From: Candidatus Magasanikiibacteriota bacterium | GTDB lineage: Bacteria; Patescibacteriota; Patescibacteriia; Magasanikbacterales; UBA922 | NCBI GenBank assembly: GCA_018650645.1 | Contig: JABIFP010000020.1 | Coordinates: 8,385 to 72,384 of the forward strand | Length of the DNA stretch: 64,000 nucleotides | Reading direction: 5' to 3' | Shown here: piece by piece, positions 3,925 to 46,926 of the stretch | How positions within the stretch are numbered: the stretch's first letter is position 1 | Layout of the letters: each line of letters opens with the position of its first letter | Notes under the pieces: model-generated | Seen by the model: the letters and a program-made list of their open reading frames with translations, nothing else | The model's database searches: none | What the model was told of the DNA's origin: nothing | Translations under genes and position numbers: made by a program

Positions 3925-5406
3925 TTACGCTAGCTTTTCCCACTCTTCTGCCCCCGCCACAAACTCACTCTTAATTTGCTCAAAGTATGCACTTGCACTT
4001 TCATAATCATTTTGCACTTTTCCATCTAAAATTGCTTCTTCAATAGCTTTTTTAATTTTTCCAATTGTTGGACCTGGCTTTAACCCACACTCTTCAATAA
4101 TTTCTTCTCCGCGTACAGGCGATTGGAATGCTCGGAGTTCATCTTTTTCTCTAATTTCTGCAATACGTTTTTCTAACTCATCATAATTTTTGAGTCGTTT
4201 TACTTTTTTCTTTTGATTCCCCGTTGTAATATCTGCGCGGCACAGTGTCAGTAAGTCATCCAAAGAATCACCTTGGTTTACAAACAGACGGCGAACAGCA
4301 CTATCTGTTACGCCATTATCCATTAATGCGATTGGCTGCAAATGCCATCGCACCAATTCACTTACAAAATGCGTATCATTTTTACTAAACCGAAGTTTAC
4401 GCATAATGTCTTTACACATTTTACGCCCTAAATGTTCATGCATATCAAACGTCCAACCTCTTCCCTCTGCAAACTTTTTTGTTGGTGGTTTTGCAATATC
4501 ATGCATAAGCCCCGCAAAACAAAGAAGTGCGTTTCCTCCCTGCTGTGCTATACCATCTACTACCGCAAAGGTGTGTGACAGATTATCTTTATGAGTGTAT
4601 CCAGCAACTTCTTCTACACCTGCTAGCTCTGTCACTTCTGGCAAACACTGATCCATGAGTTTTGCACCATGCATAAGCCATAGCCCAATTGACGGTACTT
4701 TTGCACCCATAAGCTTCATAAGTTCCTCCTGCACACGTTCTGCAGACACAATAGAAAGCCGTTCACGATTTTTATGCATTGAAAGCAGTACTGATTCTTC
4801 AATTGAAAAATCGAGCTGCGCTGCAAAGCGAGCCGCGCGAAGCATGCGCAGTGGATCGTCAAAAAATGTCTCATCCGGATCAAGCGGTGTAATAAGTTTT
4901 TTGTTTATAATTGCTTCCTTACCATTATACGGATCAACCACGTCACCTAGTGACCCATCTGGATGTACTTTCTGCGCCATTGCATTACACGTAAAATCTC
5001 TTCGTGAAAGATCTTGCTCGATTGTCGCAGGTTCTACTACAGGCTTCCGTGATTCACTTCTATACGATTCACTTCGGGCGCCTGCAAATTCCACTTCAAA
5101 AAGTACCTTTGTTTTTTCTCCTTCTGCCTCTTCTATATATACGTATCTTGCTGTATCGAAGTCTTCAAACTCGATGAGTCTTCCCTGCTCTTCTCCTTCA
5201 TACGCCAAATATGCCCTTGCAAATTCAAGTCCACTGCCGGCTACCACTACATCAATATCTTTCTTTTGATTTCTGCCCATAATGGCATCTCGAACAAATC
5301 CACCAACAACATACGCCTCAGTTTGCTGAGCGCTACTAATTTTTCCGATTGTGCTTAAAATATGTGCGTCATTCATAGTGCTGCGACTGTACACTAAAAT
5401 AGCCAA
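3925..5406 (-). CDS. cca: tRNA nucleotidyltransferase (CCA-adding) / poly(A) polymerase family protein with HD domain
   Basis: GGFVRD...DIDV nucleotidyltransferase head, an RRDFTCNAMA motif and a C-terminal HD (HDIAKP) domain. The true start may be the internal Met at about 5376, because the annotated 5' end overlaps uppP. Confidence 0.8.
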   Translation of the reverse strand: MAILVYSRSTMNDAHILSTIGKISSAQQTEAYVVGGFVRDAIMGRNQKKDIDVVVAGSGLEFARAYLAYEGEEQGRLIEFEDFDTARYVYIEEAEGEKTKVLFEVEFAGARSESYRSESRKPVVEPATIEQDLSRRDFTCNAMAQKVHPDGSLGDVVDPYNGKEAIINKKLITPLDPDETFFDDPLRMLRAARFAAQLDFSIEESVLLSMHKNRERLSIVSAERVQEELMKLMGAKVPSIGLWLMHGAKLMDQCLPEVTELAGVEEVAGYTHKDNLSHTFAVVDGIAQQGGNALLCFAGLMHDIAKPPTKKFAEGRGWTFDMHEHLGRKMCKDIMRKLRFSKNDTHFVSELVRWHLQPIALMDNGVTDSAVRRLFVNQGDSLDDLLTLCRADITTGNQKKKVKRLKNYDELEKRIAEIREKDELRAFQSPVRGEEIIEECGLKPGPTIGKIKKAIEEAILDGKVQNDYESASAYFEQIKSEFVAGAEEWEKLA

Positions 5407-6182
5407 AGAATCAAGATACCAATTAATACTCTATATACGGCAAATGGCATAAAGCCTCGTTTTTCTACAAGCTTCATCAGAAATGAAATAGCTGCATATC
5501 CACTCAAAGCAGCTGCAATTGCGCCAGCAAGGAGCATTCCGAGGTGCTCAATAGCTACACCAGAGGTAGCGGCTTCCAAAATTTTCATAACTCCTGCTGC
5601 AGCAATCACCGGCACACTCATTAAAAAAGAAAACTCTGCGGCCTGCTTTCTAGACACTCCTGCAAATAATCCTGCTGTCATGGTAATTCCTGATCTACTT
5701 GTTCCTGGAATAAGCGCGAGTGCTTGTGCACAGGCAATGAAAAATCCTTTTTTTGCGGTAACTTCTTTTCCTTGTCTGCCTTGCTGCAATTTGTCTGCAA
5801 GCGCCAGCATTATTCCCCAAAAAATAAGTGAATATGCCACTATCGAGGGGTCTCTTAGTGTGGACTCAATTGAATCGCCAAATAATACCCCAATAATCCC
5901 CGCTGGAATTATTGAAAGCGCAATAATCCATGCCATTTTTGTTTGCAGATTATTTTGCTGCGTTGGTTTAAATACTGCTTTAATATATTGCAAAAGTGTT
6001 GTACGAAAAAACCACACAACGGCAACAAGTGTTCCCATGTGAACAACAACATCAAACAAAAGCCCTTGATCTGCCCAACCAAATAGTTTTGGTAAAAAAA
6101 TTAAATGTCCTGATGAAGAAACTGGGAGAAACTCTGTAATTCCCTGAACAATTCCTAAAATAATTCCTTGTAATAGTTCCAT
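5394..6182 (-). CDS. uppP: undecaprenyl-diphosphatase (BacA/UppP)
   Basis: The N-terminus GITEFLPVSSSGHL is the UppP signature. The protein is multi-pass membrane. Confidence 0.9.
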   Translation of the reverse strand: MELLQGIILGIVQGITEFLPVSSSGHLIFLPKLFGWADQGLLFDVVVHMGTLVAVVWFFRTTLLQYIKAVFKPTQQNNLQTKMAWIIALSIIPAGIIGVLFGDSIESTLRDPSIVAYSLIFWGIMLALADKLQQGRQGKEVTAKKGFFIACAQALALIPGTSRSGITMTAGLFAGVSRKQAAEFSFLMSVPVIAAAGVMKILEAATSGVAIEHLGMLLAGAIAAALSGYAAISFLMKLVEKRGFMPFAVYRVLIGILILWLF

Positions 6183-11291: not shown

Positions 11292-12284
11292 TTAGTGGGT
11301 CATTGTTTCTTTAGCAATATCCCAATACCGTGCATCGTCATGCTGCGTTCTCATAAATTGCCACCACTCTACTCCCCACAGGTACACCCGCTTTGCACCA
11401 ATTCTATTTGCATAATCGATGTGTTTTTGGAGTCTTTCAGGATTCATTGTAAGTTCCTGCTGCTCTATATCCGTGTTTGTCGGATTCCCGTCAGTAAACC
11501 AGGGTTCACCTTGCAGTTCTGCAATAAAGAAAGTTTCTTTATCAACCCCAGTCAAAAAAGCCTTCCAACGGTATACTGCTGGTGGTAGCCAATCATAATT
11601 AATAATTGTGCCGCCAGGAGTTCTTACAATGCGGTATAGTGTGGTACCAAAATAGTCACCAGCCTTAGCAGCTTTTCTCCAAAGCCCCAATTCCCCACTG
11701 TCAGTAACCAAAATTTTATGCTCTGTGTCTAAGGATTTTACTAGCTCGATTTCTTCATAAATGGCATCCTCAAGATATCCCTCACACTCACCAAACGTAA
11801 AATGAATGAACGCTTCATTTTCTATCTGCCAAAGTTCAAGTGCCTCATGCGTTTTATACCGCTCTACAACCGCTTCCACATAAGAAAGTAGATGCTCTTT
11901 TGAAACTTCTTGCCCATAGTCAAGCCACTGCGGCACATGACACTCTGGCCAGCGCGGTGCTTTTTGCCCAACTACCAACGTTACTTTTGTTCCATGTTTA
12001 GCAGCTTCATCCATCATAAAATCAACCTCAGAAAAATCATACACAAATTTTTCTGGCTCAACCTGCTTCCACATAGCTGCAATTCGCACATACTTTGGTG
12101 ACAGTTCCTCAAGCATCGCGGTATATGCCACTCGCCAATCTAATCCAAGAGAACCTGCGTATTCTTGTGAAAAACTAATCCCATATTCTGGCTCATAATC
12201 TTTACTACTGCGTGACCAAGCAAGGAGATACAGTGCCGCAAGGAGGAGTACTATTGCCCCCAAAATTTTTAGAAATAATTTCAT
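11292..12284 (-). CDS. membrane-anchored glycoside hydrolase (TIM-barrel, GH-A-like)
   Basis: N-terminal anchor, an ENE-containing catalytic-like segment (WQIENEAF) and aromatic-rich sugar-binding style motifs. The family assignment is tentative. Confidence 0.45.
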   Translation of the reverse strand: MKLFLKILGAIVLLLAALYLLAWSRSSKDYEPEYGISFSQEYAGSLGLDWRVAYTAMLEELSPKYVRIAAMWKQVEPEKFVYDFSEVDFMMDEAAKHGTKVTLVVGQKAPRWPECHVPQWLDYGQEVSKEHLLSYVEAVVERYKTHEALELWQIENEAFIHFTFGECEGYLEDAIYEEIELVKSLDTEHKILVTDSGELGLWRKAAKAGDYFGTTLYRIVRTPGGTIINYDWLPPAVYRWKAFLTGVDKETFFIAELQGEPWFTDGNPTNTDIEQQELTMNPERLQKHIDYANRIGAKRVYLWGVEWWQFMRTQHDDARYWDIAKETMTH

Positions 12285-12285
12285 A

Positions 12286-13203
12286 TTACAATACAAATAA
12301 AGCTGATCCAATTACCACGAGTACTATTGCAAATGTCTGCACCCACAGTTCTCTTTTTGTAAAACACTCTTTGAAAATCTTTGGTGTAAATCTGCTTAGC
12401 AAATAAATCATCACAAACATAAGTGCATATTGCACGCCCGTCATTGCAAATACTGGTGTTGTTTTACCAAGCGAGCTAGCATATTGAACAAGTATTACGG
12501 CAACTACACCGATGACTTTATCTAGTGATATAATTGCAACCGTAGAAAGAGTCTGTCGCTCTTGCTTCTTGGTACGTTTTTTCTTTTTTCTTTTTTTAAA
12601 AGATGCACGAACAGACGGAGCAAGCAGTGCAAAAATTGCTACTAATCCAACAAACCCTCTTGTCCACACAAATCCGGTGAAAAAATCATATGCATCGTAT
12701 ACATATTTTGCGCTAACATGAGATAGCCCAAAGAGTACACCAGAAAGGATACCCCACAAAAACCCTTTATGAAATCCTGTGTGCTTTGCCGTTTTTTCAA
12801 ATGAAAGCAAGAATGCCGCAATAATCAAAATCGCCATTCCAAATACTTGCATTTGAGTAAGCGATTCACCAAGAAGCCATGATGAAAATCCAAAAGTAGC
12901 AATAGTCACAACTCCACCAATAAATGGATCTACATGGCTTGCCTCACCAAGCGATACGGCCTCATACATGGTCCACAGCGCAAATCCAAAGGATAACCCT
13001 GAAATAAGTGCCCAGAGCCAATCGATTCCTTGCAATAGCTGCGCGCCAAAGGGAAATGCCAAAAGCGCAGCAAACATAAAAATGGTTGAGTAAAATGCGT
13101 ACACTGCCGGTGTTGATACTGACTTTGTCAGAATCATCTTATCAAGAACAAACACGACCGCGAGTAAAAAATATCCGACAAGAGCAATCCAAAACCACAG
13201 CAT
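12286..13203 (-). CDS. DMT/EamA-like transporter
   Basis: Ten predicted TM helices with a duplicated 5-TM pattern and an internal polybasic loop. Confidence 0.5.
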   Translation of the reverse strand: MLWFWIALVGYFLLAVVFVLDKMILTKSVSTPAVYAFYSTIFMFAALLAFPFGAQLLQGIDWLWALISGLSFGFALWTMYEAVSLGEASHVDPFIGGVVTIATFGFSSWLLGESLTQMQVFGMAILIIAAFLLSFEKTAKHTGFHKGFLWGILSGVLFGLSHVSAKYVYDAYDFFTGFVWTRGFVGLVAIFALLAPSVRASFKKRKKKKRTKKQERQTLSTVAIISLDKVIGVVAVILVQYASSLGKTTPVFAMTGVQYALMFVMIYLLSRFTPKIFKECFTKRELWVQTFAIVLVVIGSALFVL

Positions 13204-18891: not shown

Positions 18892-19425
18892 TCAATGGCG
18901 GAGCCCCGAAATTGGCCGCATGGTCTTGTTCACCGGATCGATGATCCACCCCGTAGCAAAAGGGAGCGTCTCTTCGAACCGGATGTCTTGCGGCATATTC
19001 AAGGCACGAAGCATGTAAATGATGAGCCACGCGCCGATGCTTCCGTGCATCACGAGTACCCGCAGACACTGGTGGGACTGCGAATCAGCAACGAAGCTCT
19101 TTGCATAGCGCTTCAGCAACTCATTGCTGGGCCCATCACCCGATGTCTCGTTCAACTGAGCATCAGCTGAGCAAGCTGGAGTTCCCTCAAGCGCAGACGC
19201 AAGTGCGTTCCGGCTGTGGAGCACATGCGGTGTGCTTGCCGACATCAGCATGATCTCATTGCATCTGCCCAGCTGCTCTGAAATACATACCCCGAGATTG
19301 CGCATCTGCTCCTCCCCCGCAGGAAGCAGATGGCAATTAATGTCCCGCGCGCCATGCCGCACCACTATAATGCAGCCCTTCAGGCTTTGCCCAGCCTGAG
19401 TATTAATCTCCTGTTCAGCAACCAT
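18892..19425 (-). CDS. histidine phosphatase superfamily protein, SixA-like phosphohistidine phosphatase, in a GC-rich islet
   Basis: The RHG catalytic motif in IIVVRHGARD and a second His motif (VMHGS) late in the protein. GGGAGGG Shine-Dalgarno before the ATG. Confidence 0.55.
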   Translation of the reverse strand: MVAEQEINTQAGQSLKGCIIVVRHGARDINCHLLPAGEEQMRNLGVCISEQLGRCNEIMLMSASTPHVLHSRNALASALEGTPACSADAQLNETSGDGPSNELLKRYAKSFVADSQSHQCLRVLVMHGSIGAWLIIYMLRALNMPQDIRFEETLPFATGWIIDPVNKTMRPISGLRH

Positions 19426-19477: not shown

Positions 19478-20848
19478 ATGTCAAATATGATTCACCTATA
19501 TAATAGCTTAAGTAAGCAAAAAATCGCTTTTACTCCCCTTCATGCTGATGAGGTTGGCCTGTATAGCTGCGGCCCTACGGTCTACCACTATGCTCATATT
19601 GGGAACCTCAGATCGTATATATTTCAGGATGTGTTGAAACGTACACTCAGAGCAAATGGGTACAAAGTGCGCCATGTCATGAATATTACTGATGTTGGCC
19701 ATCTCACTGATGACGGCGATGATGGAGAAGATAAAATGGAAAAAGGTTCGGCCAGAGAAGGAAAAACCGCCTGGGATGTTGCGCAGTTTTACACTGATGC
19801 ATTTTATGCTGATATTGCACAATTGAATATTATTGAACCAACAATTTGGTCTAAAGCAACTGATCACATTCCCGAGCAGATTGCGATGGTAGAAAAGCTC
19901 ACTGAAAAAGGACATACCTACCAAACAGAGGACGGTATTTATTTTGACACCACATCGATTGATGATTACGGAAAGTTAGTTGATGTAGATAAACAGGAGT
20001 TGCAAGCTGGCGTACGCGTTGACATGGGAGGAAAAAAGAATCCGCATGATTTTGCACTCTGGAAATTTACTCGAGCAGGAGAAACCCGACAGATGGAATG
20101 GGATGCGTTTATGAGAAAAGGATTTCCCGGTTGGCACATTGAATGTAGTGCCATGGCGCAAAAGTATTTAGGCGATCAGTTTGATATTCACTGCGGTGGA
20201 ATTGATCATAAACCTGTACACCACACAAATGAAATTGCACAAACTGAAGCTTCAACTGGCAAAAAACCGTCAGTGCAGGTTTGGATGCATAATGAATTTT
20301 TAGTGCTTCAAGGCGAAGAAAAAATGTCGAAATCTGGTGATAATTTTATGACACTTTCAAAGATTACGGAAGATGGCATTCCTCCACTGGCGTATCGATA
20401 TTATTTGCTCCAGGCACATTATAGAAAGCAACTTGCCTATTCAACAGAAGCATTGCAGGGAGCAGCGCAAGGACTAAAAACGCTGAAGCGTCTTGTTGCG
20501 GCGATTCCTGACCGTTCCCCAGGCGATTTAACTGTTACTGAAGCGTTTATGCAAGCTGTGAATGATGATCTCAATACTCCAGAGGCACTTGCAGTCCTTT
20601 TTACGGCATTAAAGCGGGGATCAGTGAGCAAAGAGCAAGTCATGCAGTTTGATAAAATATTGGGACTTGATTTGTTAAAGCAATCGATTGTTAATATTCC
20701 CGATGACGTGCAAGTACTTGTAGATAAGCGAGCTGCCGCAAGAACAAAAAAAGACTTCGCTCTCTCTGACGCACTTAGAGATGAAATTGCAACTCACGGA
20801 TTTTCTGTGAAAGATGGAAGTAACGGCCAAGAAATAACACCTGCATAA
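19478..20848 (+). CDS. cysS: cysteinyl-tRNA synthetase
   Basis: HIGH-class motif (HIGN), KMSKS, Zn-binding Cys residues and a DALR-like C-terminus. Length is 456 aa. Confidence 0.95.
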   Translation: MSNMIHLYNSLSKQKIAFTPLHADEVGLYSCGPTVYHYAHIGNLRSYIFQDVLKRTLRANGYKVRHVMNITDVGHLTDDGDDGEDKMEKGSAREGKTAWDVAQFYTDAFYADIAQLNIIEPTIWSKATDHIPEQIAMVEKLTEKGHTYQTEDGIYFDTTSIDDYGKLVDVDKQELQAGVRVDMGGKKNPHDFALWKFTRAGETRQMEWDAFMRKGFPGWHIECSAMAQKYLGDQFDIHCGGIDHKPVHHTNEIAQTEASTGKKPSVQVWMHNEFLVLQGEEKMSKSGDNFMTLSKITEDGIPPLAYRYYLLQAHYRKQLAYSTEALQGAAQGLKTLKRLVAAIPDRSPGDLTVTEAFMQAVNDDLNTPEALAVLFTALKRGSVSKEQVMQFDKILGLDLLKQSIVNIPDDVQVLVDKRAAARTKKDFALSDALRDEIATHGFSVKDGSNGQEITPA

Positions 20849-20849
20849 T

Positions 20850-21338
20850 ATGGCAATCTATACCGACGTTTATAATAATCCACATGAAAAGCCAGAAAAC
20901 ACACCTATTGTGTGGCGGCCTTCAGCGTATACGCTTATTGTAGAAGATGGAAAACTCCTTATGATTCAGCCTTCTTGGCACAAGCAATGGGAGTTACCTG
21001 GCGGTGGTGTAGAAAAAGAAGAACTACTACATGAAGGAGGTGTCAGAGAAACACTTGAAGAAACCGGCTACACGGTAACTATTGATAACATTGAACCTTT
21101 TTTTGTAGAAAGCTGCAGATTCTATATTGATCTGATTACTAAAAACACCTTCTGCAACTCGATTAAAGCATTTTACCTTGCAACTCGCACAGACGATGCA
21201 CAGCAGGAATTACACCAGAATCCTCACGGAATTAATGAAACAGAACAAATGAAATGGATCCCACTCACGGAACTTACTGATAAAATTGTACTGCACGCAC
21301 ACTGGCCAGCAGTGAAAAAACTTCTTGAAAAAAAGTAA
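20850..21338 (+). CDS. NUDIX hydrolase
   Basis: Nudix box GGGVEKEELLHEGGVRETLEETGY. The start codon is 1 nt after the cysS stop. Confidence 0.8.
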   Translation: MAIYTDVYNNPHEKPENTPIVWRPSAYTLIVEDGKLLMIQPSWHKQWELPGGGVEKEELLHEGGVRETLEETGYTVTIDNIEPFFVESCRFYIDLITKNTFCNSIKAFYLATRTDDAQQELHQNPHGINETEQMKWIPLTELTDKIVLHAHWPAVKKLLEKK

Positions 21339-21339
21339 T

Positions 21340-21549
21340 ATGCCGTACAAACACTACAAAGGACATCTCTACGAGATTGTTACAGAAGGAACACACAGCG
21401 AATCGCATGAAGAAATGGTTGTGTACCGTTCACTGGAACAAAACGGCCCGTACCCAACAGGAACCATATGGGTGAGGCCAAAGGAAATGTTTTTTGAGGA
21501 GGTTGAGGTGGATGGTGAGAAAAAGAAGCGCTTTACTCGAATAGATTAG
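21340..21549 (+). CDS. DUF1653-like small protein
   Basis: HYKGHLYEIV...VYRSLEQ...WVRPKEMF pattern typical of DUF1653. The likely start is the internal Met just after the NUDIX stop. Confidence 0.55.
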   Translation: MPYKHYKGHLYEIVTEGTHSESHEEMVVYRSLEQNGPYPTGTIWVRPKEMFFEEVEVDGEKKKRFTRID

Positions 21550-21761: not shown

Positions 21762-21791
21762 AAAAAAAGCGCTTTACGCGCTTCTTTTTTT
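21762..21791. terminator. bidirectional intrinsic terminator at the ribH 3' end
   Basis: A7, then AGCGC tttac GCGCT, then a T-run. It overlaps the ribH stop codon. Confidence 0.55.
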
Positions 21792-25855: not shown

Positions 25856-27184
25856 ATGTATAGACAACCATACCATATTTCCCGCGGCGTTCGCATCACA
25901 ATTATGCTTTCGCTCATAAGTGCATTTTTAATTTCAGCACCTCTTTTGATCGCATACACCTCTGGATACAGATATTCGTTTGATGAAGGGCTTATTAGTA
26001 AGGGATCACTCTCTGTTACAGCCAAACCGATTGATGCCACCATTTTTGTAAATAATATTGCTATTGATCAAGAAGGCGGGCTTGAGAATAGAGACAAAGC
26101 GGCCATTAGCATGGATACACTAGCTGCTGGTATGTATGACGTTCGTATTGAGCGAGATGGATACCTTCCTTTTGAAAAAACAATCGATGTTCGAAGTAAT
26201 GAAGCCTCTTATGTCCGAGATCTTACTCTTTTTATAGATACGCAATTTGAACAAGTAGAAGACGTGTCTTCTTACGATTACGTACAGCTCACCAAACAGG
26301 CTCCAGCACTTCTTCTGCAAGAAGGAGCGACGTGGCACACGAAGTTGCCTGGGCAGGGTGCGTCGCACAGACAAGGAAAGTTTGCTGACCCTGTGATTTT
26401 ACACACACACCCATCACTGCAAGCAGCCGTGCTGTTAGATACCAGCAATGCACCGTCTTCTACGCGAGCAGTAGTTGCCGGGTTTAACGGATTGCAACCA
26501 ACCGCATATACCATTCCGACAGCACTTACAGATACTGCTGATGTCCATTGGAGCGGCAATAGTGACACACTCTATGTACGTGCAAGTTCAACAGTATATG
26601 CAATTTCTCATGATTCATTTACGCAAGTTGGTGTGACAACAGCAACTGAGTGGTTTGTTGATGTGAATAACGTACTCTGGGAGCAGCAAGAGCGCACACT
26701 GGTGCAGACTAAAGACAAAGAGACAACTCGATTTTTACCAAGCACAACAGTACAACCAATTGATGTAAACGAAGCACGCGTTATTTTACAGGGCGCGAAA
26801 AGTGTTTATGTAAGTTTGCATACTGCGTCAGAACAAATCACACAAATTCCCACGCAAGGGCTCTTGTTTGATGCCGATAAAAACTTGTGGTACACCTGGA
26901 GCGAATTTGAGGTATTTTCAATCGATGGAAATGGAACCATTAAACCACTCTACAGATCTTCTCAAGAAATTCATGACATTGCCATTTTAGATGAGTACGG
27001 AGTGATTGGGATTGCTTCTGCGAATGGCGTAAGTGCCTTTCATACTAGATACCTCACTTCTCATACACTCATTAGTGGGCAAAGCGTATCAATGATCAGC
27101 GCTGACATTGCAGGTAGAGTACTCTATGCAATTGAGGAAAATGCAGAACAAGGAACCAAGTCACTCATAAAAAGAAGATACTAA
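25856..27184 (+). CDS. membrane-anchored PEGA-domain protein
   Basis: N-terminal TM helix, a PEGA-like beta segment (YDVRIERDGYLPFEKTIDV), and beta-propeller-like repeats C-terminally. The start is probably an internal Met near 25904. Confidence 0.5.
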   Translation: MYRQPYHISRGVRITIMLSLISAFLISAPLLIAYTSGYRYSFDEGLISKGSLSVTAKPIDATIFVNNIAIDQEGGLENRDKAAISMDTLAAGMYDVRIERDGYLPFEKTIDVRSNEASYVRDLTLFIDTQFEQVEDVSSYDYVQLTKQAPALLLQEGATWHTKLPGQGASHRQGKFADPVILHTHPSLQAAVLLDTSNAPSSTRAVVAGFNGLQPTAYTIPTALTDTADVHWSGNSDTLYVRASSTVYAISHDSFTQVGVTTATEWFVDVNNVLWEQQERTLVQTKDKETTRFLPSTTVQPIDVNEARVILQGAKSVYVSLHTASEQITQIPTQGLLFDADKNLWYTWSEFEVFSIDGNGTIKPLYRSSQEIHDIAILDEYGVIGIASANGVSAFHTRYLTSHTLISGQSVSMISADIAGRVLYAIEENAEQGTKSLIKRRY

Positions 27185-27223: not shown

Positions 27224-30200
27224 TTATACAACAATATTCACAATTCTTCCTGGAATATATATCTGTTTCTTTGGCTCTTTCCCGTCAATAAAGCGTTGCA
27301 CATTCTCTTCTGCATGTGCAGCCTCAAATGCTTGCGCTTCTGTTGCATCAGCTGGCAACGTAATGGTTCCGCGCAATTTTCCGTTTACTTGTACAGCTAC
27401 GGTTAGCGTGTCTTCTACTAATTTTGATTCGTCATATGCTGGCCACTCTGCCAGTGTTGCAGACCCTTCTTTACCAAGCACTTCCCACAGCTCTTCTGCC
27501 ATATGCGGTGCATATGGTGCTAGGATACTTACAAATGTGGCAAAATCATCTTTTGCAATTTGCGTTTCTTTAGTAAATGCATTTGCACATTCCATCATTG
27601 CTGCAATTGCTGTGTTAAATTGCAACTCGGCAGTATCCCCTGTTACCTTTTTAATTGTCTTATGCAGTATACGATTCATTTCTTCTGTACCCGTTTCGGC
27701 AAGCTTTTCTTGCAGCTTCCACACTTTTTCTAGAAATCTTCTTACTCCTTTTACTCCACCGGTGTTCCAGGCTTTTGCCTGATCTAGTGGCCCCATGAAC
27801 ATTTCATACATGCGGACAGTATCTGCTCCGTATTCATTCACCACATCTGTTGGGTTAATCACATTCCCCCACCGCTTACTCATTTTTCTCCCATCTTCAC
27901 CGGAAATAAGTCCCTGATGACGGTTTACTTTAAACGGCTCATCAAAATCGATAAGTCCTTCATCAAAAAGCACCTTTGTGAAGAATCGTGAATACAGGAG
28001 ATGTCCGTTTACATGTTCTTCACCACCCAAGTAGAAATCGATTGGCATCCATTTTTTGAGCTGTTCTTTTGAAGCAAACGCCTCATCATTTTTTGGATCT
28101 AAGTATCTGAAGAAGTACCAGCTAGAACACATAAACGTGTCGAGTGTATCTACCTCTCTCTTCCATCCTTTTCCGTATTTTTCTTCTACCCCATCTTGGA
28201 ATGATGGTGAGTAGTTGAGTGGTGATTGTCCTGTTGGTTTGAAGTCAACATCGTCTGGAAGGATGACTGGGAGGTCTTGTATTGTTAGTGGCCGAAGCCC
28301 AGAAATGAGCGCTTCATCAAGGATGACTTGTTCCTCATTACCATCAAAATGTGGTTTATTTGATTGCGCATAGACCAGCCGAGCATCCAAATCTGTTGCC
28401 ATTTTTTCTAAGTGTTCTTTTTTTATAATTGGGAATGCATTATCTCCAATTATTGTAATTTCAGAACACAACGCTTTTACTTTTTCTGTATCAAACTCCC
28501 ACGTTGTACTGTCTTCTACAACTGTTCTTTTTTTGTCATTGAATTCTGGAACATATACGGGATCCACAAAACACAGCTTTGCAATATTTTTTCCAGATTG
28601 TTCTAACATTCTGAGAGCCACTGCTGCACCGTGACTTTGAGAAACAATAACCGTATTCTCATCAAGTGTAACTTGCTCTAGTGCAAATGTAGCCTGTTCA
28701 TCTGCTTTTGGTTTTTCTGTATTTGGAAGGTCAAATGCCTTGACTATATGACCCTGCAATTCAAGTTCTTGTTTCAACCATGGCCAGAAAATAGCTTCTT
28801 TACCAGAACCGTATCCATGCAAACATACATACAACCTTTTTTTGTTTTTTTCTTCTTCATTTGAAATAACTGGAATTGGCGCACCCCAAAATCGTTGTCT
28901 TGAAACTGACCAATCGCGGAGTTTGTATTGTGTTTTCTTTTTACCAATGTTTTTTTCTTCAAGCCATTCGAACATTCTTGTTTTTGCTTCTTGTGTTGTT
29001 AGATCATTGAGGAATTCCGAGTTTACGACAACACCTTCCCCACTATATGTGCTTGCTTCCACAAACATATTCCATGCAAGAGCGTGTGGATCCCAATTAA
29101 TATCTGTCGCAACCTTTTTCTTATCTTGCCAATACATTTCATGCCTGCCCTCATCAACTTCACATGAGACACGCTCCTCATCTGTCAGCTGTACATGAAA
29201 CCAAACAGAACCTGTTATTTGGTTCTTATTCTTAGTAATGCGATATCCCTGAGCATTAAAATGTTCAATAAATCGGGACCTAATGACATAATTCACATAT
29301 CCACTTTCCTCTTTTATTTCTTTTGTAAGAGCTTCTTCAATACTTTCACCTTCTTCTACACCCCCACCAACAAAATGTACACCGTCGACATCTCTCAAAA
29401 GTAGAAATTTTCCACCATCAGAATTTTCAATGATTACATCTATACATCTACGATTAAGTGTCTCGACTCCATCTTTCATCGCTTTCTTTCCTGTAAAAGC
29501 TACTGACGGAGCAACAACCTGTCTAATCTCCAACCCAAACTTCTTCGCAAACGCAAAGTCCCTCTCATCATGCGCCGGAACGGCCATGATTGCTCCGGTT
29601 CCGTATGTTGCAAGCACGTAATCAGCAATCCAAACGGGAACTTCTTCCCCATTAGCTGGATTTATCGCTTTTACTCCTTTTAGTTCTACTCCTGTTTTTT
29701 CTTGATCTACTTGTCTATCTAAATTCGATTTCTTTTCCGTTGCATGAACATATGCCTGCACTTCATCCCAATTTTTAATTGTTTCTTGCAAGCCCTGTAC
29801 CAAAGCATGTTCTGGCGCAAGTACCATATAGGTTGCTCCAAAAAGCGTATCTGGTCGTGTAGTAAATACGGTAATGTTTTCTTCAGTATCTTTCACGCTA
29901 AACTGCACCTCAGCTCCTTCGCTTCTTCCAATCCAATTTCTTTGCCGAGTAATTGTTTCCTGTGGCCAATCGACTTTATCAAGGTCGTCAATCAACCTAT
30001 CTGCGTAATCTGTTATTTTTAAATACCATTGCTCCATTTCTTTTTGCAAAACTGGAGTATCACAACGTTCACAAGCACCTTCTACAATTTGTGCATTCGC
30101 CAACACTGTTTTACAACTATCACACCAATTCACTGCCTGATTTTTTCTATACGCAAGTCCTCTTTTATACATCAAAAGGAAAAACCACTGTGTCCATTTA

Positions 30201-30601
30201 TAATAATCAGCATTATGTGATCCTACTTCTCTCTCCCAATCGACTGAAATACCGAGCTGCTTAATTTGACTGCGGAAGTTTTCAATTGCCTTATCTGTAT
30301 TAATCCGCGGATGCACATTTGTTTTAATCGCATAATTTTCTGCAGGGAGTCCAAAAGAATCCCACCCAATCGCTTGAAGTACCTTTTTTCCTGTCATTCT
30401 CTGATACCGCGCAAAAATATCACATGCGGTGTATACCTCTGCATGTCCAACATGAAGCCCACTCCCAGAAGGATACGGAAGTTGCGGCAGTATATACATC
30501 TTATTTTCTGACGTTGCGTCTACCGGTGTCTTATAGAGCTTCTGCTCTTCCCAACGTGCTTGCCACTTCTTTTCGATTTCCTTCGGATTATATTGACTCA
30601 T
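27224..30601 (-). CDS. leuS: leucyl-tRNA synthetase, 1125 aa, with two inserted extra domains (NUDIX and alpha/beta serine hydrolase)
   Basis: Full class-I LeuRS framework: HVGH, CP1 editing domain (TTRPDTLFGATY...AHDERDFAFAKKFGL), KMSKR and a C-terminal anticodon-binding region. About 330 extra residues make up two inserted modules. Confidence 0.9.
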   Translation of the reverse strand: MSQYNPKEIEKKWQARWEEQKLYKTPVDATSENKMYILPQLPYPSGSGLHVGHAEVYTACDIFARYQRMTGKKVLQAIGWDSFGLPAENYAIKTNVHPRINTDKAIENFRSQIKQLGISVDWEREVGSHNADYYKWTQWFFLLMYKRGLAYRKNQAVNWCDSCKTVLANAQIVEGACERCDTPVLQKEMEQWYLKITDYADRLIDDLDKVDWPQETITRQRNWIGRSEGAEVQFSVKDTEENITVFTTRPDTLFGATYMVLAPEHALVQGLQETIKNWDEVQAYVHATEKKSNLDRQVDQEKTGVELKGVKAINPANGEEVPVWIADYVLATYGTGAIMAVPAHDERDFAFAKKFGLEIRQVVAPSVAFTGKKAMKDGVETLNRRCIDVIIENSDGGKFLLLRDVDGVHFVGGGVEEGESIEEALTKEIKEESGYVNYVIRSRFIEHFNAQGYRITKNKNQITGSVWFHVQLTDEERVSCEVDEGRHEMYWQDKKKVATDINWDPHALAWNMFVEASTYSGEGVVVNSEFLNDLTTQEAKTRMFEWLEEKNIGKKKTQYKLRDWSVSRQRFWGAPIPVISNEEEKNKKRLYVCLHGYGSGKEAIFWPWLKQELELQGHIVKAFDLPNTEKPKADEQATFALEQVTLDENTVIVSQSHGAAVALRMLEQSGKNIAKLCFVDPVYVPEFNDKKRTVVEDSTTWEFDTEKVKALCSEITIIGDNAFPIIKKEHLEKMATDLDARLVYAQSNKPHFDGNEEQVILDEALISGLRPLTIQDLPVILPDDVDFKPTGQSPLNYSPSFQDGVEEKYGKGWKREVDTLDTFMCSSWYFFRYLDPKNDEAFASKEQLKKWMPIDFYLGGEEHVNGHLLYSRFFTKVLFDEGLIDFDEPFKVNRHQGLISGEDGRKMSKRWGNVINPTDVVNEYGADTVRMYEMFMGPLDQAKAWNTGGVKGVRRFLEKVWKLQEKLAETGTEEMNRILHKTIKKVTGDTAELQFNTAIAAMMECANAFTKETQIAKDDFATFVSILAPYAPHMAEELWEVLGKEGSATLAEWPAYDESKLVEDTLTVAVQVNGKLRGTITLPADATEAQAFEAAHAEENVQRFIDGKEPKKQIYIPGRIVNIVV
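28307..28849 (-). other. alpha/beta serine hydrolase (PF06821/YdeN/RBBP9-like) domain inserted in LeuRS (residues about 585-765)
   Basis: LYVCLHGYGSGKEAIFWPWLKQEL N-terminus typical of the Ser_hydrolase family, and a nucleophile elbow VSQSHGAA. Inserted after DWSVSRQRFWGAPIP and before the KMSKS half. Confidence 0.6.
29042..29479 (-). other. NUDIX hydrolase domain inserted in LeuRS (residues about 375-520)
   Basis: Nudix box GGGVEEGESIEEALTKEIKEESGY (Gx5Ex7[KR]ExxEExGY) located between the CP1 editing domain and the ...VVVNSEFLNDL segment. Confidence 0.7.
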
Positions 30602-33212: not shown

Positions 33213-34562
33213 CTATGCTGCCAAATCTGTATCCGTAATACCAAGTCTACTTAGTAACGCGAGATGTTCTGGATTAGACGGGTCGTATTTACCCACACTA
33301 AACTGCATAGCAGCATCAGGATCTTCACCTACTAAATTCCAAATATCGATATTCCCTTCTCTATAAATCATATCTTTTGTAAAACACACTCCTGGAGTTT
33401 TGCCGTCCGTACCTCTAAATACTCGAACAGATCTATTATAGGCAAGCGTATCTGCCTTGCCCGATGCCGCAGCAGGATCCATTCCGCTCAATAATTTTTC
33501 TAAGTACATCTGGGCACGTATAATCTCATATACTTCTCTAAATCCTCGTTTCTGTCCATCAACACCTCTCGCGAGTGCAATGCCCAGATGTCCTGCCATT
33601 CCAGCAAAATCTTGGACATCTCCCGTTACCGCTTGCTCACGCATGGTAGCAACGCCCTCTTCCCCGCGCTCATATCTATCAAGTCCAAGCCCCAAAAGCT
33701 GTAACTTACTGTGTTCTCCATTCACACGCCGCGCAACGTGCGTTCCAATTTCATGTACAATAAGTTGCTGCAATTTCTTTGCGGTCATGCTTCTTCCCTC
33801 TGGAACAACTACTTTTTTTTCTTCTTGATTTACACTAATGCTCGTTTTGCCCGTGTCTACCACTTCCACAGTCCATCCGGTTAGCTCTAAAGAACTCATA
33901 GCCTCCCTAAATACCTCCTGAATTTGACCAGCCTCATACTGTTCTACCTTTGTATCAACAGCCGCCATAGCCTCTGAAAATGCATCCAGCGTTTGCACCT
34001 GCATAGCATCAACGATATTTTGTGTAGGAAGCGCAGCTACATCATGTGCTGAACCTTCCGGAAGAATCTCAATCAATTGCTGCGCTGCCGCAGCGATATC
34101 GGGGTTATCAGAAGAAAGTGCATCATGAGCTTTCTTACTTTCTGTTGCCAGCGTATATCCAAAAACCTGTGCAGAAGGTTCACCATATACAAAAGAGGTG
34201 TATTTCGAAAAGCGCTTCATATTCCCATTCAAGGCAGCCTTCATCATCCGTACTTCTGCAATTTTTTCGTTTATCTTCCATCTGTACGCTTGCTTTACAT
34301 CGGGATTTGGTTCTTTATTTAAAATATCTTTTTTCAATGCGAGTAGGTCATCTTCCTTAGTCTGTAAATCACCCATATTCAATTTAGGGTAATCAAGTGC
34401 GGGTGCATCAATTTCCCCATCCATAAATGCACGCTTCTGCTCTGCTCTGGCTTCTCTATCTCCAGAGAAATATTCGTATGCCTGAAAAGATCCAGCCCCC
34501 TCAAATCGACCATACCACTGTGCATCAAGTGGCTCTTGTTCTCTTCTTCTCATGCCTTCCAT
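33213..34562 (-). CDS. DUF1704/QEGLA-motif-like putative metallo-hydrolase
   Basis: HEIGTHVARR plus ...GEEGVATMREQ, resembling the flavohemoglobin-expression-modulating QEGLA family. The assignment is tentative. Confidence 0.35.
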   Translation of the reverse strand: MEGMRRREQEPLDAQWYGRFEGAGSFQAYEYFSGDREARAEQKRAFMDGEIDAPALDYPKLNMGDLQTKEDDLLALKKDILNKEPNPDVKQAYRWKINEKIAEVRMMKAALNGNMKRFSKYTSFVYGEPSAQVFGYTLATESKKAHDALSSDNPDIAAAAQQLIEILPEGSAHDVAALPTQNIVDAMQVQTLDAFSEAMAAVDTKVEQYEAGQIQEVFREAMSSLELTGWTVEVVDTGKTSISVNQEEKKVVVPEGRSMTAKKLQQLIVHEIGTHVARRVNGEHSKLQLLGLGLDRYERGEEGVATMREQAVTGDVQDFAGMAGHLGIALARGVDGQKRGFREVYEIIRAQMYLEKLLSGMDPAAASGKADTLAYNRSVRVFRGTDGKTPGVCFTKDMIYREGNIDIWNLVGEDPDAAMQFSVGKYDPSNPEHLALLSRLGITDTDLAA

Positions 34563-44175: not shown

Positions 44176-46926
44176 ATGGCCTCACCAGAAGAAAACAGCG
44201 TTCATGAAGCTGAAAAATCAAGAAGTGAAGCTGCTGAAGCTACGCCACAAACCTCAGAGGACTTTCGTGAAGCATTAGCCGCAGACATGGGCGTGACCAC
44301 CCAAACATTTGAGCATCTCAAAACTGATGCTGAGCTAGCAGGACTTACTCCAGAAGAAATTGCGGAGTATGGTGCTGCGCTGGATCAGATTCATGAGCAG
44401 ATGAGAAAAGAGACCGAACGGCTAACTGCAGAGTTAGCGGATCTGCATGAACAGCTAAAGGCAGAAAAAGATGCTGCTGACGCTCTGAAGATACTAGACC
44501 TGGATACATCAGAAACAGAAGCCGGTATCTCAGAAAAAGAAGAGTTAACACGTGAACTTGAGCAAACACTTGAAAAAGCAGCACAAAATGCAGCCAAGGT
44601 AACAGAAAACAAAGAGCGGCTTACCGAAATGGAAAGAGGAAAAGTACGAAATATTGAAAAATTTGCAGAACTTGAGCGCGCTCTGCCACGCGCTGGTATT
44701 GATGGTCCCCAGTTAATCCGAAAAGCGTTAGATGCAGATTTTTTAGAAGACTATGCTGATACCCATATTACTCAGCTAGATGCGTACGCTAAAACACTCA
44801 CAGAAAAAAATAAGGCGGCACTTACAGCCCTGCAAGAGAAACATGCAGCGACAGAAGCAGAACGTGTCCAGAAATTTACGGCTTCTGAAGATGTACAGAA
44901 TTTGAAAAGCGCTCTCAAAGCGAAACAAGAAGCCTTCGCAAAGATGCATGCTCAACTTACGCCAGAGCAAATAGCAGCGGTTGAGACAGCGGTTGCCGCG
45001 CTTCAAAAAAACATTGAAACACAAGAGCAGCAGGAGCTGCAAGCATACAAAGATACACACGCAGCGCCCCTTCAGGCTGCAAAACATGAGGCCTTACGTG
45101 CATTCATTAAAAACACTATTCCCGATTCTGAAATTGAGCGGTTAATTGAGACAGGTGAATTACAATCTGATGAATTAGCGCACAGAATTGGAACACTTAT
45201 GGCCCCAGAAGCCATAGAGAATTTTGATCAAAAAATGGCAGTTTTGCTTCCAGAAAAAGTCATTGAGGGTATTCTAGATCAAATTCCTCCTGGACATTAT
45301 AGGGACTCTAGAACTCCTTACAAAATGTCTCACGTCTTATACAACTATCCTGCATTTTTGGAAGAGAAATTGCGACGATCTGAGGAAGGCAATCGTAGTA
45401 TCCAACAATTTATGGATGCATTTGCGCAATTGAACCAGGAATTCAAAGAGGCTGAAGCGTTGTTGATAGATCTACCCAGCAGAGATCGAATATTGAAAAG
45501 TAATGCATTACTCAAAGAACTATGGCCAAAGCTACATAAAGAGCTACAGGCAGCACATGGTTTATCTAGGGACAATATTCCCAATTTAAACCATTATCTT
45601 GACGGAGATATTGAAAAAGCATGGGAAGAATCCGATTCCGGAGTAGGACCAGCTTACTCAACAAGACAGGTGCAGGCTGAGATAGAACAGGCAATAGCAC
45701 TGGGAGTCAAGGCATATCAGGACCGCTGGTGGCATCCAGAAAAGGATGACAGAAAAAAACTTGCCGAGGCAAATGAGAAACAGCGTTCGGATAGCTATGA
45801 TCCACACTATAACTTAACAACCGTTCAGGAATACGAAGCAGACAGACAAGAGATTGGTAGCATAGACGCTACAATTGATGCTACATTCACCAAGGCAAAT
45901 AAGGTGGCCGCTGAAGCCGCTGCTGCATCGGAGCGAATTCAAACAGAGGGTCGGCAAAAGATGGAAGAAATCACAGCCAAGTTCGCAAAAATTCAAGAAA
46001 AGATGGAGAGCAGTGATACTACTGTTGAAGACATGTATGCGGCCCAAAAATGGATTGAGCATGCAACACGTCAGATAACAGACGATATCAAAAAAGATGA
46101 AATGACTACAAAGCAGGATCTGCTTAAAAAGCATCCTATCATCTCTCAGCATGAGCTACGAACACGTGTAGATGAGCTCATAACATTAGGCAAAAGCACA
46201 AAATCAGAACTTGCCGCTGAATACGAGAGCGAACGGTGGAAAGCAGAGGCCCTTGTGTCTCAAGCATTTCCTCTACTTCCTGAAGATTTTTTTAGCGCAT
46301 TTGATAAAGCCAGTTCCAGTGCGGCTAGAGACGCGAAAGAGAAAATTAAAGAAAGAAACCGGGAAATTGAACGTGATAAGCAAAGAGCTATTGAGGAAAG
46401 TGAACGAAAAGCAAAGCAAGAAGAACGCGATGAAAAGAAGCGAATTTGGAATCAAAATGTCAATCAAAATGAAAAAAAGACACTGCTACATGAAATAAAT
46501 CGCTATTCTTTTTCCCAACAAAGAGATCTCGAGGATTTTAAAGAAAAATATGAACCTAAACTAAAGCGTGCTGCTGATTTTATCTCGAGATTGAAAACCG
46601 CAAAAACTAAATTCTCTTTATTTACTAGAACTATAAACCTCCATGATTTAGGTGGAACTGAGGTGGGTATAACCAAAAAAAATGTCGATGATTTCATCTT
46701 ACGAGCTATACAAAATCAGGCTGCTATCATTGAAGAAATGAAACAAGAGAAAAATGCTGTATTGATTACACGTGACGAACGAGTTAAAAAAACTTTAGAA
46801 CAGACAAAAAATAAGTTCGCATCAGAGGAAGGATACGAAGAAGCAAAAAAGCAAGCGTATGAAAATCACAGGGGTAATAGATCAAGATTGGAGAAAGCTT
46901 TGCTTGAATTTATAGATGCAAATTAA
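44176..46926 (+). CDS. 916-aa highly charged (E/K/A-rich) coiled-coil protein, no TM helix or signal peptide, function unknown
   Basis: Continuous ORF with heptad-like periodicity, no enzymatic motif, flanked by the uvrC-end direct repeats. Confidence 0.55.
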   Translation: MASPEENSVHEAEKSRSEAAEATPQTSEDFREALAADMGVTTQTFEHLKTDAELAGLTPEEIAEYGAALDQIHEQMRKETERLTAELADLHEQLKAEKDAADALKILDLDTSETEAGISEKEELTRELEQTLEKAAQNAAKVTENKERLTEMERGKVRNIEKFAELERALPRAGIDGPQLIRKALDADFLEDYADTHITQLDAYAKTLTEKNKAALTALQEKHAATEAERVQKFTASEDVQNLKSALKAKQEAFAKMHAQLTPEQIAAVETAVAALQKNIETQEQQELQAYKDTHAAPLQAAKHEALRAFIKNTIPDSEIERLIETGELQSDELAHRIGTLMAPEAIENFDQKMAVLLPEKVIEGILDQIPPGHYRDSRTPYKMSHVLYNYPAFLEEKLRRSEEGNRSIQQFMDAFAQLNQEFKEAEALLIDLPSRDRILKSNALLKELWPKLHKELQAAHGLSRDNIPNLNHYLDGDIEKAWEESDSGVGPAYSTRQVQAEIEQAIALGVKAYQDRWWHPEKDDRKKLAEANEKQRSDSYDPHYNLTTVQEYEADRQEIGSIDATIDATFTKANKVAAEAAAASERIQTEGRQKMEEITAKFAKIQEKMESSDTTVEDMYAAQKWIEHATRQITDDIKKDEMTTKQDLLKKHPIISQHELRTRVDELITLGKSTKSELAAEYESERWKAEALVSQAFPLLPEDFFSAFDKASSSAARDAKEKIKERNREIERDKQRAIEESERKAKQEERDEKKRIWNQNVNQNEKKTLLHEINRYSFSQQRDLEDFKEKYEPKLKRAADFISRLKTAKTKFSLFTRTINLHDLGGTEVGITKKNVDDFILRAIQNQAAIIEEMKQEKNAVLITRDERVKKTLEQTKNKFASEEGYEEAKKQAYENHRGNRSRLEKALLEFIDAN

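Follow-up and report, generated by a model that had tools for sequence, protein, structure and literature searches.

A compact gene string opening with cysS

The window, a 64,000-nucleotide stretch of contig JABIFP010000020.1 from a Candidatus Magasanikiibacteriota bacterium, carries on its forward strand a string of three genes that opens with cysS (19478..20848, +), whose 456-residue product is a cysteinyl-tRNA synthetase (CysRS) as judged by ORF coordinates and Pfam matches (tRNA-synt_1e, E=9.7e-92, plus CysS_C and DALR_2). The cysS stop codon (TAA, 20846-20848) is separated by a single spacer base (t, 20849) from the ATG at 20850 of a stand-alone NUDIX hydrolase gene (20850..21338, +; 162 aa; TAA at 21336-21338), and the resulting TAAtATG junction (20846..20852, +), read directly from the DNA, agrees with a preliminary description in which the NUDIX ORF was placed 1 nt after cysS. 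Because an identical second TAAtATG junction (21336..21342, +; also read directly) joins the NUDIX gene to a 69-residue DUF1653 gene (21340..21549, +; Pfam DUF1653, E=3e-24), the last of the string, the unit consists of three genes. The preliminary description had overlooked this second junction.

A terminator-like hairpin with a T-run, found by consensus scan only, lies at 21767..21783 (+) between DUF1653 and the convergent ribH, and on the + strand the scan located no terminator-like hairpin after cysS before 21767. Shared strand, two 1-nt spacers, no internal terminator-like site and retention in relatives together have the make-up of an operon; the tight packing described earlier is thus borne out, and co-transcription of cysS-nudix-DUF1653 is plausible. 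Neither junction has a Shine-Dalgarno sequence, which carries no information, since of 22 genes inspected just 1 has such a site. An Rfam scan of the window returned only tRNAs. By base composition the NUDIX gene is native (GC 40.1% and GC3 33.7%, versus 42.0% and 34.4% for cysS).

In relative L001, whose CysRS and NUDIX proteins are 78% and 62% identical to those of the window, the adjacency and both TAAtATG junctions are kept, with a DUF1653 orthologue directly after NUDIX, and within the species itself the arrangement is seen on at least 24 contigs. Retention of the exact junctions at 62% protein identity suggests that selection acts on coupled expression of the string. Tight spacing (1-10 nt) is, at the same time, a genome-wide habit that also extends to unrelated genes: spacers of 10 nt or less separate 11 of 41 same-strand gene pairs, including flavokinase/S41 peptidase/MurA. 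A 1-nt gene spacing in such compact genomes should accordingly not be taken as functional coupling.

The NUDIX protein and its family

The 162-residue ORF matches Pfam NUDIX (PF00293) with E=1.1e-14 and 55 bits, against a cut-off of 21.1, and its predicted structure is a confident NUDIX alpha/beta/alpha fold (pLDDT 94.7). The Nudix box core, located by regex match, spans G52-G73 (GGVEKEELLHEGGVRETLEETG; 21003..21068, +) and follows the pattern GX5EX7REUXEEXGU as G52-x5-E58-x7-R66-E67-T68-L69-E70-E71-T72-G73-Y74, with T and Y, rather than aliphatic residues, at the U positions; E58, R66, E67, E70 and E71 are intact here and invariant across 70 family members. The start codon at 20850 is supported by the family alignment, in which the N-terminal D6 is conserved in 67 of 70 relatives. 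NUDIX enzymes share a mechanism whereby Mg2+ or Mn2+ bound to the box glutamates drives hydrolysis of nucleoside-diphosphate-X bonds. The protein is a genuine and most likely catalytically active single-domain NUDIX pyrophosphohydrolase, in which E67, E70 and E71 would hold the metal for hydrolysis of such a bond. PADLOC returned just a generic 36-bit match to a candidate defence NUDIX.

A family profile search retrieved 824 relatives at E<=1e-5 whose sources, where named, are mostly Patescibacteria, Saccharibacteria or Uhrbacteria. Against the family profile (alignment A3) the window protein scores 157.7 bits, in the range of members (122.7 or more) and above that of outsiders (83 or less), and it carries all the family marks, namely an N-terminal extension, D6, Y27 and the invariant W136. 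The beta extension together with D6, Y27 and W136 probably shapes the substrate pocket. This delineates a mostly patescibacterial family of stand-alone NUDIX proteins with a D6/Y27/W136 signature.

A metagenome scan with the family alignment used Nudix-box peptides as its patterns and hence picked up generic NUDIX genes at 78 of 80 loci; only L084 and L095 were true members. A Ham1-NUDIX fusion (L083), flanked by LysRS-type and SerRS genes, at first resembled a third aminoacyl-tRNA synthetase (aaRS) context and a hint at NTP sanitation; at 54 bits and without the N-terminal extension, it is not a family member.

Substrate class

The nearest solved structures, 2PQV from S. pneumoniae, 3ID9 and 3SMD from B. 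thuringiensis, 3GRN and 2AZW, share 22-26% identity with the window protein and score well under the family members' minimum; the function of all five is listed as 'Undetermined' in the Nudix clan review (PMC5389931). Scores of the asymmetric Ap4A hydrolase/RppH group (Aquifex aq_158 3I7U, BdRppH 3EES, E. coli RppH, CT771 from Chlamydia and Rv2985 from M. tuberculosis) are indistinguishable from those of NudI, MutT-like, UDP-X and ADPR enzymes, and fold search scores do not part Ap4A hydrolases from MutT, NudI or ADPR enzymes either. Equivalog models stay far below their cut-offs both for RppH (NF001938, 26.9 bits vs 116; NF001937, 19.5 vs 139) and for MutT (TIGR00586, 19.4 bits vs 97.9; NF008044, 22.7 vs 148).

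ADPRases are marked by a Pro in the post-box loop and NADH pyrophosphatases by SQPWPFPQS (PMC5389931); residues 86-96 of the window protein read VESCRFYIDLI, with no Pro, and SQPWPFP occurs nowhere in it. According to the review's account of Dunn 1999, a Tyr about 17 residues after the box correlates with ApnA activity (PMC5389931). The window protein has Y92 about 18 residues past the box, but the family does not conserve this Tyr: 20 of the 70 members share it, and 48 have Phe instead. Y92 is thus an ambiguous marker of an ApnA hydrolase and was not relied on. As a working guess, the substrate is probably a small housekeeping one that falls within the NTP, dinucleoside-polyphosphate or RNA 5'-end class, taken as one broad class.

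A second NUDIX module embedded in LeuRS

A regex search of the window found just two Nudix boxes, the other one lying within leucyl-tRNA synthetase (LeuRS; 27224..30601, -; 1125 aa), where the previously described embedded NUDIX domain proved to be real (Pfam NUDIX, aa 384-497, E=7.9e-11). This module, a comparator outside the string, occupies aa ~382-528 after the CP1 editing domain (29018..29458, -), and in its box (29300-29365) K replaces the canonical R. It resembles the stand-alone enzyme in superfamily, organism and a box of the form GGGVE...EE(T/S)GY, but belongs to a separate family and is devoid of the N-terminal extension. The comparison of the two sequences proposed in the preliminary description aligns them at 32% identity over 68 aa (E=3e-5), in the Nudix-box region only.

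That shared box is what a single origin of the two modules, with the stand-alone NUDIX as recent duplicate or donor of the embedded one, would have in its favour. Beyond the box, the LeuRS module scores 47 bits on the stand-alone profile, where about 20 PDB NUDIX enzymes of diverse substrates match or beat it, and the stand-alone protein scores 46.1 bits on the profile of LeuRS-inserted NUDIX domains (members at least 93.9). Across 70 + 97 domains, cross-family scores (15-67 bits) never overlap those within a family (about 94 or more), and of the 149 proteins closest to the LeuRS module 86 are LeuRS enzymes as well, the stand-alone protein being outside the best 150. By these comparisons the two modules belong to cleanly separate families and are not paralogues; a common origin is highly improbable and already effectively refuted.

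NUDIX insertions were found in at least 86 LeuRS representatives, as one to three copies that lie on either or both sides of the CP1 editing domain. A word-indexed search had given 2 proteins, and the rarity that this implied was discarded when an exhaustive search exposed a limit of sensitivity. We found no paper on the LeuRS-NUDIX architecture. This widespread insertion is the more notable by-product of the analysis and, should the module prove active, would be of consequence for the biology of synthetases.

Gene neighbourhoods in relatives

Beyond the species and L001, the cysS-nudix adjacency did not extend: a search of 1.39 Mb around the cysS genes of 80 further species yielded no NUDIX ORF at distances of up to 10 kb. 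The set includes the nearest Patescibacteria in GTDB and was searched with two NUDIX profile HMMs whose positive controls worked, an earlier strict Nudix-box regex having also given zero. Between 66% and 100% CysRS identity, a single genome was sampled. The placement behind cysS is a quirk of one narrow lineage. In the closest GTDB relatives, cysS is followed by a HIT protein (L003) and a kinase-like protein (L004); the presence of a HIT-family nucleotide hydrolase in the post-cysS slot of L003, the nearest of them, may be a sign of functional substitution as opposed to chance. The HD protein that also follows cysS in L003 is YedJ-like and was rejected as a counterpart of the Ap4A hydrolase YqeK.

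Of eight lineages of the stand-alone family, two have the gene near an aaRS gene, cysS here and the class-II pheT elsewhere, and six do not; the neighbours recorded are cysS, pheT, a PAS histidine kinase, MFS, DUF1653 with a methyltransferase, a TIR protein and an HD protein. The pheS-pheT-NUDIX context, seen in L002, L163, L166 and L168, is loose, with gaps of 83-147 nt or one to three intervening genes, and the stable partners there are dnaE and a pair of small ORFs further downstream of NUDIX. A Pfam scan covering the larger ORFs of the window, out of ~65 in all, identified cysS and leuS as its only aaRS genes, so that a random gene would have a chance of ~6% of abutting one (2 aaRS among ~65 ORFs). 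Two of eight lineages exceed this expectation per lineage (binomial P about 0.08, post hoc), making a real association of the family with aaRS genes possible, albeit weak.

Interpretation of the placement behind cysS

We consider it likely that the gene encodes an active NUDIX enzyme of a mostly patescibacterial family, set in the middle of the cysS-nudix-DUF1653 string by a placement restricted to its lineage, and that the enzyme is no paralogue of the NUDIX module of LeuRS. The enzyme would be expressed as the middle gene of this compact string, its conserved TAAtATG junctions allowing read-through transcription and termination-reinitiation translation. Its spot behind cysS would then reflect an arrangement confined to one lineage whose genome is very compact, and would not be evidence that NUDIX serves CysRS. 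The best reading is a routine one, in which cysS and a housekeeping NUDIX gene share a transcription unit simply for convenience.

The locus could instead reflect coupling to the synthetase, NUDIX being co-expressed with CysRS to clear by-products of aminoacyl-adenylates (Ap4A/Np4N, Np4 RNA caps), and the pheT-linked orthologues and LeuRS-embedded NUDIX answering the same need. Two independent aaRS contexts, Y92 at the position correlated with ApnA activity (PMC5389931), the HIT protein behind cysS in L003 and the wide occurrence of LeuRS-NUDIX fusions speak for such coupling. Against it, six of the eight lineages lack any aaRS gene nearby, pheT is linked only loosely, aaRS classes I and II are mixed, position 92 is mostly Phe, and the LeuRS module comes from a different family. 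Moreover, fold scores do not single out Ap4A hydrolases, RppH equivalog models stay at ~27 bits against cut-offs of at least 116, and the 80 other cysS loci are empty of NUDIX; we judge coupling to CysRS unlikely. The claim in the preliminary description that NUDIX hydrolases are repeatedly coupled to class-I synthetases is not supported by the same evidence, the two modules being of separate families, the other cysS loci having no NUDIX and the second aaRS context involving class-II PheRS, and is further weakened by the genome-wide tight spacing and by the presence of only two of eight lineages near an aaRS. That description would have given up its claim if the two modules were of unrelated subfamilies and the adjacency were absent from every relative; the subfamilies do differ, but the adjacency is kept in a close relative.

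A different partner is suggested by the second junction, in that NUDIX and DUF1653 may form a functional pair merely parked behind cysS in the lineage of the window. In the window and L001 alike, a 1-nt junction of one kind joins DUF1653 to the NUDIX gene, and in the Uhrbacteria contig L171 the orthologues of DUF1653 (47% identical) and NUDIX (36% identical) stand two genes apart, DUF1653 upstream, beside secA instead of cysS; however, a link in two related lineages only could be residual synteny, the other six lineages have no DUF1653 within 4 kb of NUDIX, and DUF1653 is without known function or solved homologue, its literature coming to one incidental paper. Such a pairing appears doubtful, although it could offer a first handle on DUF1653.

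In its broadest form, the synthetase connection would have Patescibacteria systematically tie nucleotide-pyrophosphate hydrolases to aaRS, within LeuRS or by operon behind cysS and pheST, which we regard as very unlikely. If it were true, such ties would serve to break down Ap4A/Np4N or wrongly made adenylates where they arise, and the cysS-adjacent NUDIX would be a trans-acting version of the cis module of LeuRS. Such a systematic tie also counts the HIT protein behind cysS in L003 among its operon links.

A three-gene string behind cysS

On the + strand, cysS (456 aa; 19478-20848; Pfam tRNA-synt_1e, 9.7e-92, with CysS_C and DALR_2) ends in a TAA that we read directly from the sequence at 20846-20848, and a single t separates this stop from the ATG at 20850 of a 162-aa ORF whose own TAA lies at 21336-21338. 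Re-reading of the ORFs and a Pfam NUDIX match (55 bits, E=1.1e-14; cut-off 21.1) show that the NUDIX gene behind cysS had been located and described correctly. The same TAAtATG recurs at 21336-21342 (+), where the NUDIX stop meets the start of a 69-aa DUF1653 gene (21340-21549, +; Pfam 3e-24), and the unit is therefore cysS-nudix-DUF1653. A hairpin scan of the + strand after cysS found no terminator-like hairpin before that at 21767-21783 (+), in the gap ahead of the convergent ribH. On the other side, 52 nt upstream of cysS, a divergent 177-aa ORF (18892-19425, - strand) keeps its position in L001, the corresponding locus of a close relative (GCA_041294365.1).

The window is very compact: greedy ORF calling gives a coding density of ~91%, and neighbours on one strand often lie 1-10 nt apart. 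Of 41 neighbour pairs on the same strand, 11 are separated by at most 10 nt and seven by at most 3 nt. Such pairs include unrelated genes (flavokinase/S41 peptidase, 3 nt; S41 peptidase/MurA-like, 6 nt; MFS/glycosidase, 2 nt), and close packing in this genome does not imply shared function. A Shine-Dalgarno motif precedes just one of 22 gene starts examined in the window; the genome appears to lack such motifs in general, so that their absence at the cysS/NUDIX/DUF1653 junctions is uninformative.

Conservation of the adjacency

The cysS-nudix-DUF1653 arrangement recurs in at least 24 contigs from this species, and DUF1653 is intact also in those where it had escaped gene calling. In L001 the genes are ordered as in the window all the way from pyrG to leuS, and both TAAtATG junctions persist, at 78% identity for CysRS and 62% for NUDIX. 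Persistence of the exact junctions is compatible with selected translational coupling, and would also follow from simple compaction.

Around cysS in GTDB species representatives (80 loci from a CysRS scan, flanks up to 10 kb, 1.39 Mb), tblastn with NUDIX or DUF1653 found nothing, and two NUDIX HMMs, whose positive controls scored 54-169 bits, matched none of the ORFs even at E<=10. The adjacency is thus kept within a narrow clade, comprising the same species and the close relative L001, but not beyond it. The closest GTDB representative, the patescibacterial locus L003 (CysRS 66%), has the order pyrG-rplI-era-x-cysS in common with the window and continues after cysS (11450-12799) with genes for a HIT-family protein (weak resemblance to ATP-adenylyltransferase/HinT), an HD phosphohydrolase resembling YedJ, and a small GNAT; the slot occupied by NUDIX in the window holds here another set of nucleotide-handling genes. 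In L004 (Magasanikiibacteriota, CysRS 57%), a Bud32/RIO-like kinase follows cysS.

The stand-alone NUDIX protein

The protein, deposited identically as a NUDIX hydrolase from a Candidatus Magasanikbacteria MAG, carries the Nudix box G52-x5-E58-x7-R66-E67-T-L-E70-E71-T-G73-Y74 with all catalytic positions intact. A profile search recovered 824 relatives at E<=1e-5, the named sources of which, where names are given, are mostly Patescibacteria, Saccharibacteria or Uhrbacteria. Across a 70-sequence family alignment G51, E58, R66, E67, E70, E71 and W136 are invariant and D6, Y27, G52, G53, E55 and G73 nearly so; the N-terminal extension holding D6 and Y27 is a family signature that generic NUDIX domains lack. 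A confident AlphaFold2 model based on the family alignment (pLDDT 94.7, pTM 0.89) shows the NUDIX sandwich extended by two additional strands at the N terminus. Base composition points to a native gene (GC 40.1%, GC3 33.7%, against 42.0% and 34.4% for cysS), and PADLOC gave only a generic match, of 36 bits, to candidate PDC-S07.

We conclude that the protein is a predicted active NUDIX pyrophosphohydrolase. It approaches none of the curated NCBIfam equivalogs (RppH 26.9 bits against a cut-off of 116; NudI 26.8 against 95; MutT 19-23 against 98-148), and the best PDB matches of the family profile, 2PQV (78.5 bits), 3ID9, 3SMD and 3GRN, are listed together with 2AZW as "Undetermined" in function in a review of the Nudix clan (PMC5389931). 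Foldseek places an Aquifex Ap4A hydrolase on top, with E-values spanning less than 50-fold over the top 50 matches, which also hold RppH, NudI, MutT-like, UDP-X, NADH and geranyl-PP enzymes; fold searches with the model thus do not discriminate among candidate substrates. Of the specificity motifs reported ~17 residues past the Nudix box (a Tyr in enzymes acting on ApnA, a Pro in those acting on ADP-ribose and SQPWPFPQS in those acting on NADH; PMC5389931), the post-box loop of the window protein contains neither the Pro nor the NADH motif and has Y92, a position that is Phe in 48 and Tyr in 20 of the 70 aligned sequences, so that an ApnA-type Tyr is not general in the family. The most likely substrate class, we infer, is a small NTP, NpnN or RNA 5'-end.

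NUDIX modules within LeuRS

The window contains exactly two Nudix boxes by regex scan, and Pfam scans of its larger ORFs identify cysS and leuS as its only aaRS genes. The second box belongs to LeuRS (1125 aa; 27224-30601, -; TIGR00396, 945 bits), in which an embedded NUDIX domain was confirmed at aa 384-497 (Pfam, 7.9e-11; within the module at ~29018-29458, -), directly after the CP1 editing domain. A second insert (aa ~585-790; ~28232-28849, -), with a weak Abhydrolase_6 match, resembles an alpha/beta "serine hydrolase" (LHGYGSG ... SQSHGA) and sits between the catalytic core and a region that is a short linker in other bacteria.

When the LeuRS module was used as query in an exhaustive HMMER search, 266 representatives were returned at E<=1e-3. 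LeuRS sequence is present in 86 of the best 149 of these, a set in which 43 proteins reach 700 aa and 42 of those are LeuRS. Each of nine long matches checked with Pfam proved to be a LeuRS, its NUDIX stretches lying before CP1, after it or on both sides. Among the 86, 78 carry one NUDIX domain, six carry two and two carry three, and the full R-E-x-x-E-E box is kept in 67 of 97 modules. The hydrolase insert is matched in 12 other NUDIX-bearing LeuRS; one of these, P0154, gives PF06821 Ser_hydrolase. The LeuRS of L001 (944 aa, ~180 aa shorter than that of the window) carries NUDIX, with no hydrolase-family match listed. NUDIX in LeuRS is not peculiar to this organism, and the LeuRS-NUDIX (± serine-hydrolase) architecture, on which full-text literature searches found no paper, is widespread and merits separate attention.

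Is NUDIX coupled to class-I synthetases?

The preliminary description had read the two occurrences as a repeated coupling of NUDIX to class-I aaRS and the cysS pair as likely co-transcribed. Co-transcription is plausible, and the adjacency persists in a close relative; repeated coupling is unsupported, both by the relationship of the two modules and by the genomic contexts of the stand-alone family. BLASTP aligns the two window modules at 32% identity over 68 aa round the box (E=3e-5). The LeuRS module reaches 47.3 bits against the stand-alone profile, a value equalled or exceeded by ~20 PDB NUDIX enzymes of diverse functions, and its match starts at profile position 32, so that it lacks the N-terminal extension. 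On the stand-alone profile all 70 stand-alone members reach 122.7 bits or more, and on the LeuRS-type profile none of them exceeds 54.6; the 97 LeuRS modules score at least 93.9 on the latter and at most 67.1 on the former. The sets do not overlap, the cross-family scores being the informative ones because each profile was built from sequences that it scores and within-family scores are circular. The two modules thus fall into separate families and are related at superfamily level only.

Eight bona fide lineages of the stand-alone family were examined, each scoring at least 120 bits on its profile. An aaRS lies near in two: cysS, in cysS-NUDIX-DUF1653 of the window and L001, and, loosely, the class II pheT, in pheS-pheT-NUDIX-two small ORFs-dnaE (L002, L163, L166/L167, L168), where pheT and NUDIX lie 83-147 nt apart or, in L166 and L168, are parted by one to three genes. 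None is near in the other six, in which NUDIX lies near a PAS histidine kinase with restriction-modification or helicase genes upstream (L164/L165, L169, L172), before an MFS transporter (L170), within secA-DUF1653-methyltransferase-NUDIX-S51 peptidase-HAD (L171, Uhrbacteria), beside DUF3850 with Ham1 three genes upstream (L173), after a TIR-domain protein (L084), or in NUDIX-HD protein-x-second NUDIX (L095). At ~6% chance abutment (two aaRS among ~65 ORFs in the window), two or more of eight has a post hoc probability of ~0.08; the count is not evidence for coupling, and leaves room for a weak NUDIX-aaRS association.

The pheT-associated loci (~4001-5500 in each) belong to one Patescibacteria clade; their two small ORFs, of ~110 and ~150 aa and without Pfam match, adjoin NUDIX even where genes part it from pheT. 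Some family members have defence-type neighbours: the TIR-domain protein in L084 (1425-2907), type I restriction HsdR and a YgjP-like protein in L164 (59-4471), and an AlwI-type restriction enzyme with two methyltransferases in L172 (1-4492).

Proximity of DUF1653 to NUDIX recurs in two patescibacterial classes and likewise deserves separate attention. DUF1653 directly follows NUDIX in the window and L001 (6491-6697), and in L171 (3059-3295) it lies two genes before the orthologous NUDIX, with cysS not nearby; the NUDIX-DUF1653 link may therefore predate the cysS link.

Other ORFs of the window

At the thresholds used, Pfam matched nothing in four sizeable ORFs, namely the 177-aa ORF upstream of cysS and ORFs of 916 aa (44176-46926, +), 442 aa (25856-27184, +) and 336 aa (55793-56803, -). 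A 449-aa ORF (33213-34562, -) matches the MATCAP family (E=2.4e-27), named for a microtubule-associated tyrosine carboxypeptidase, a surprising family name in a patescibacterial genome.
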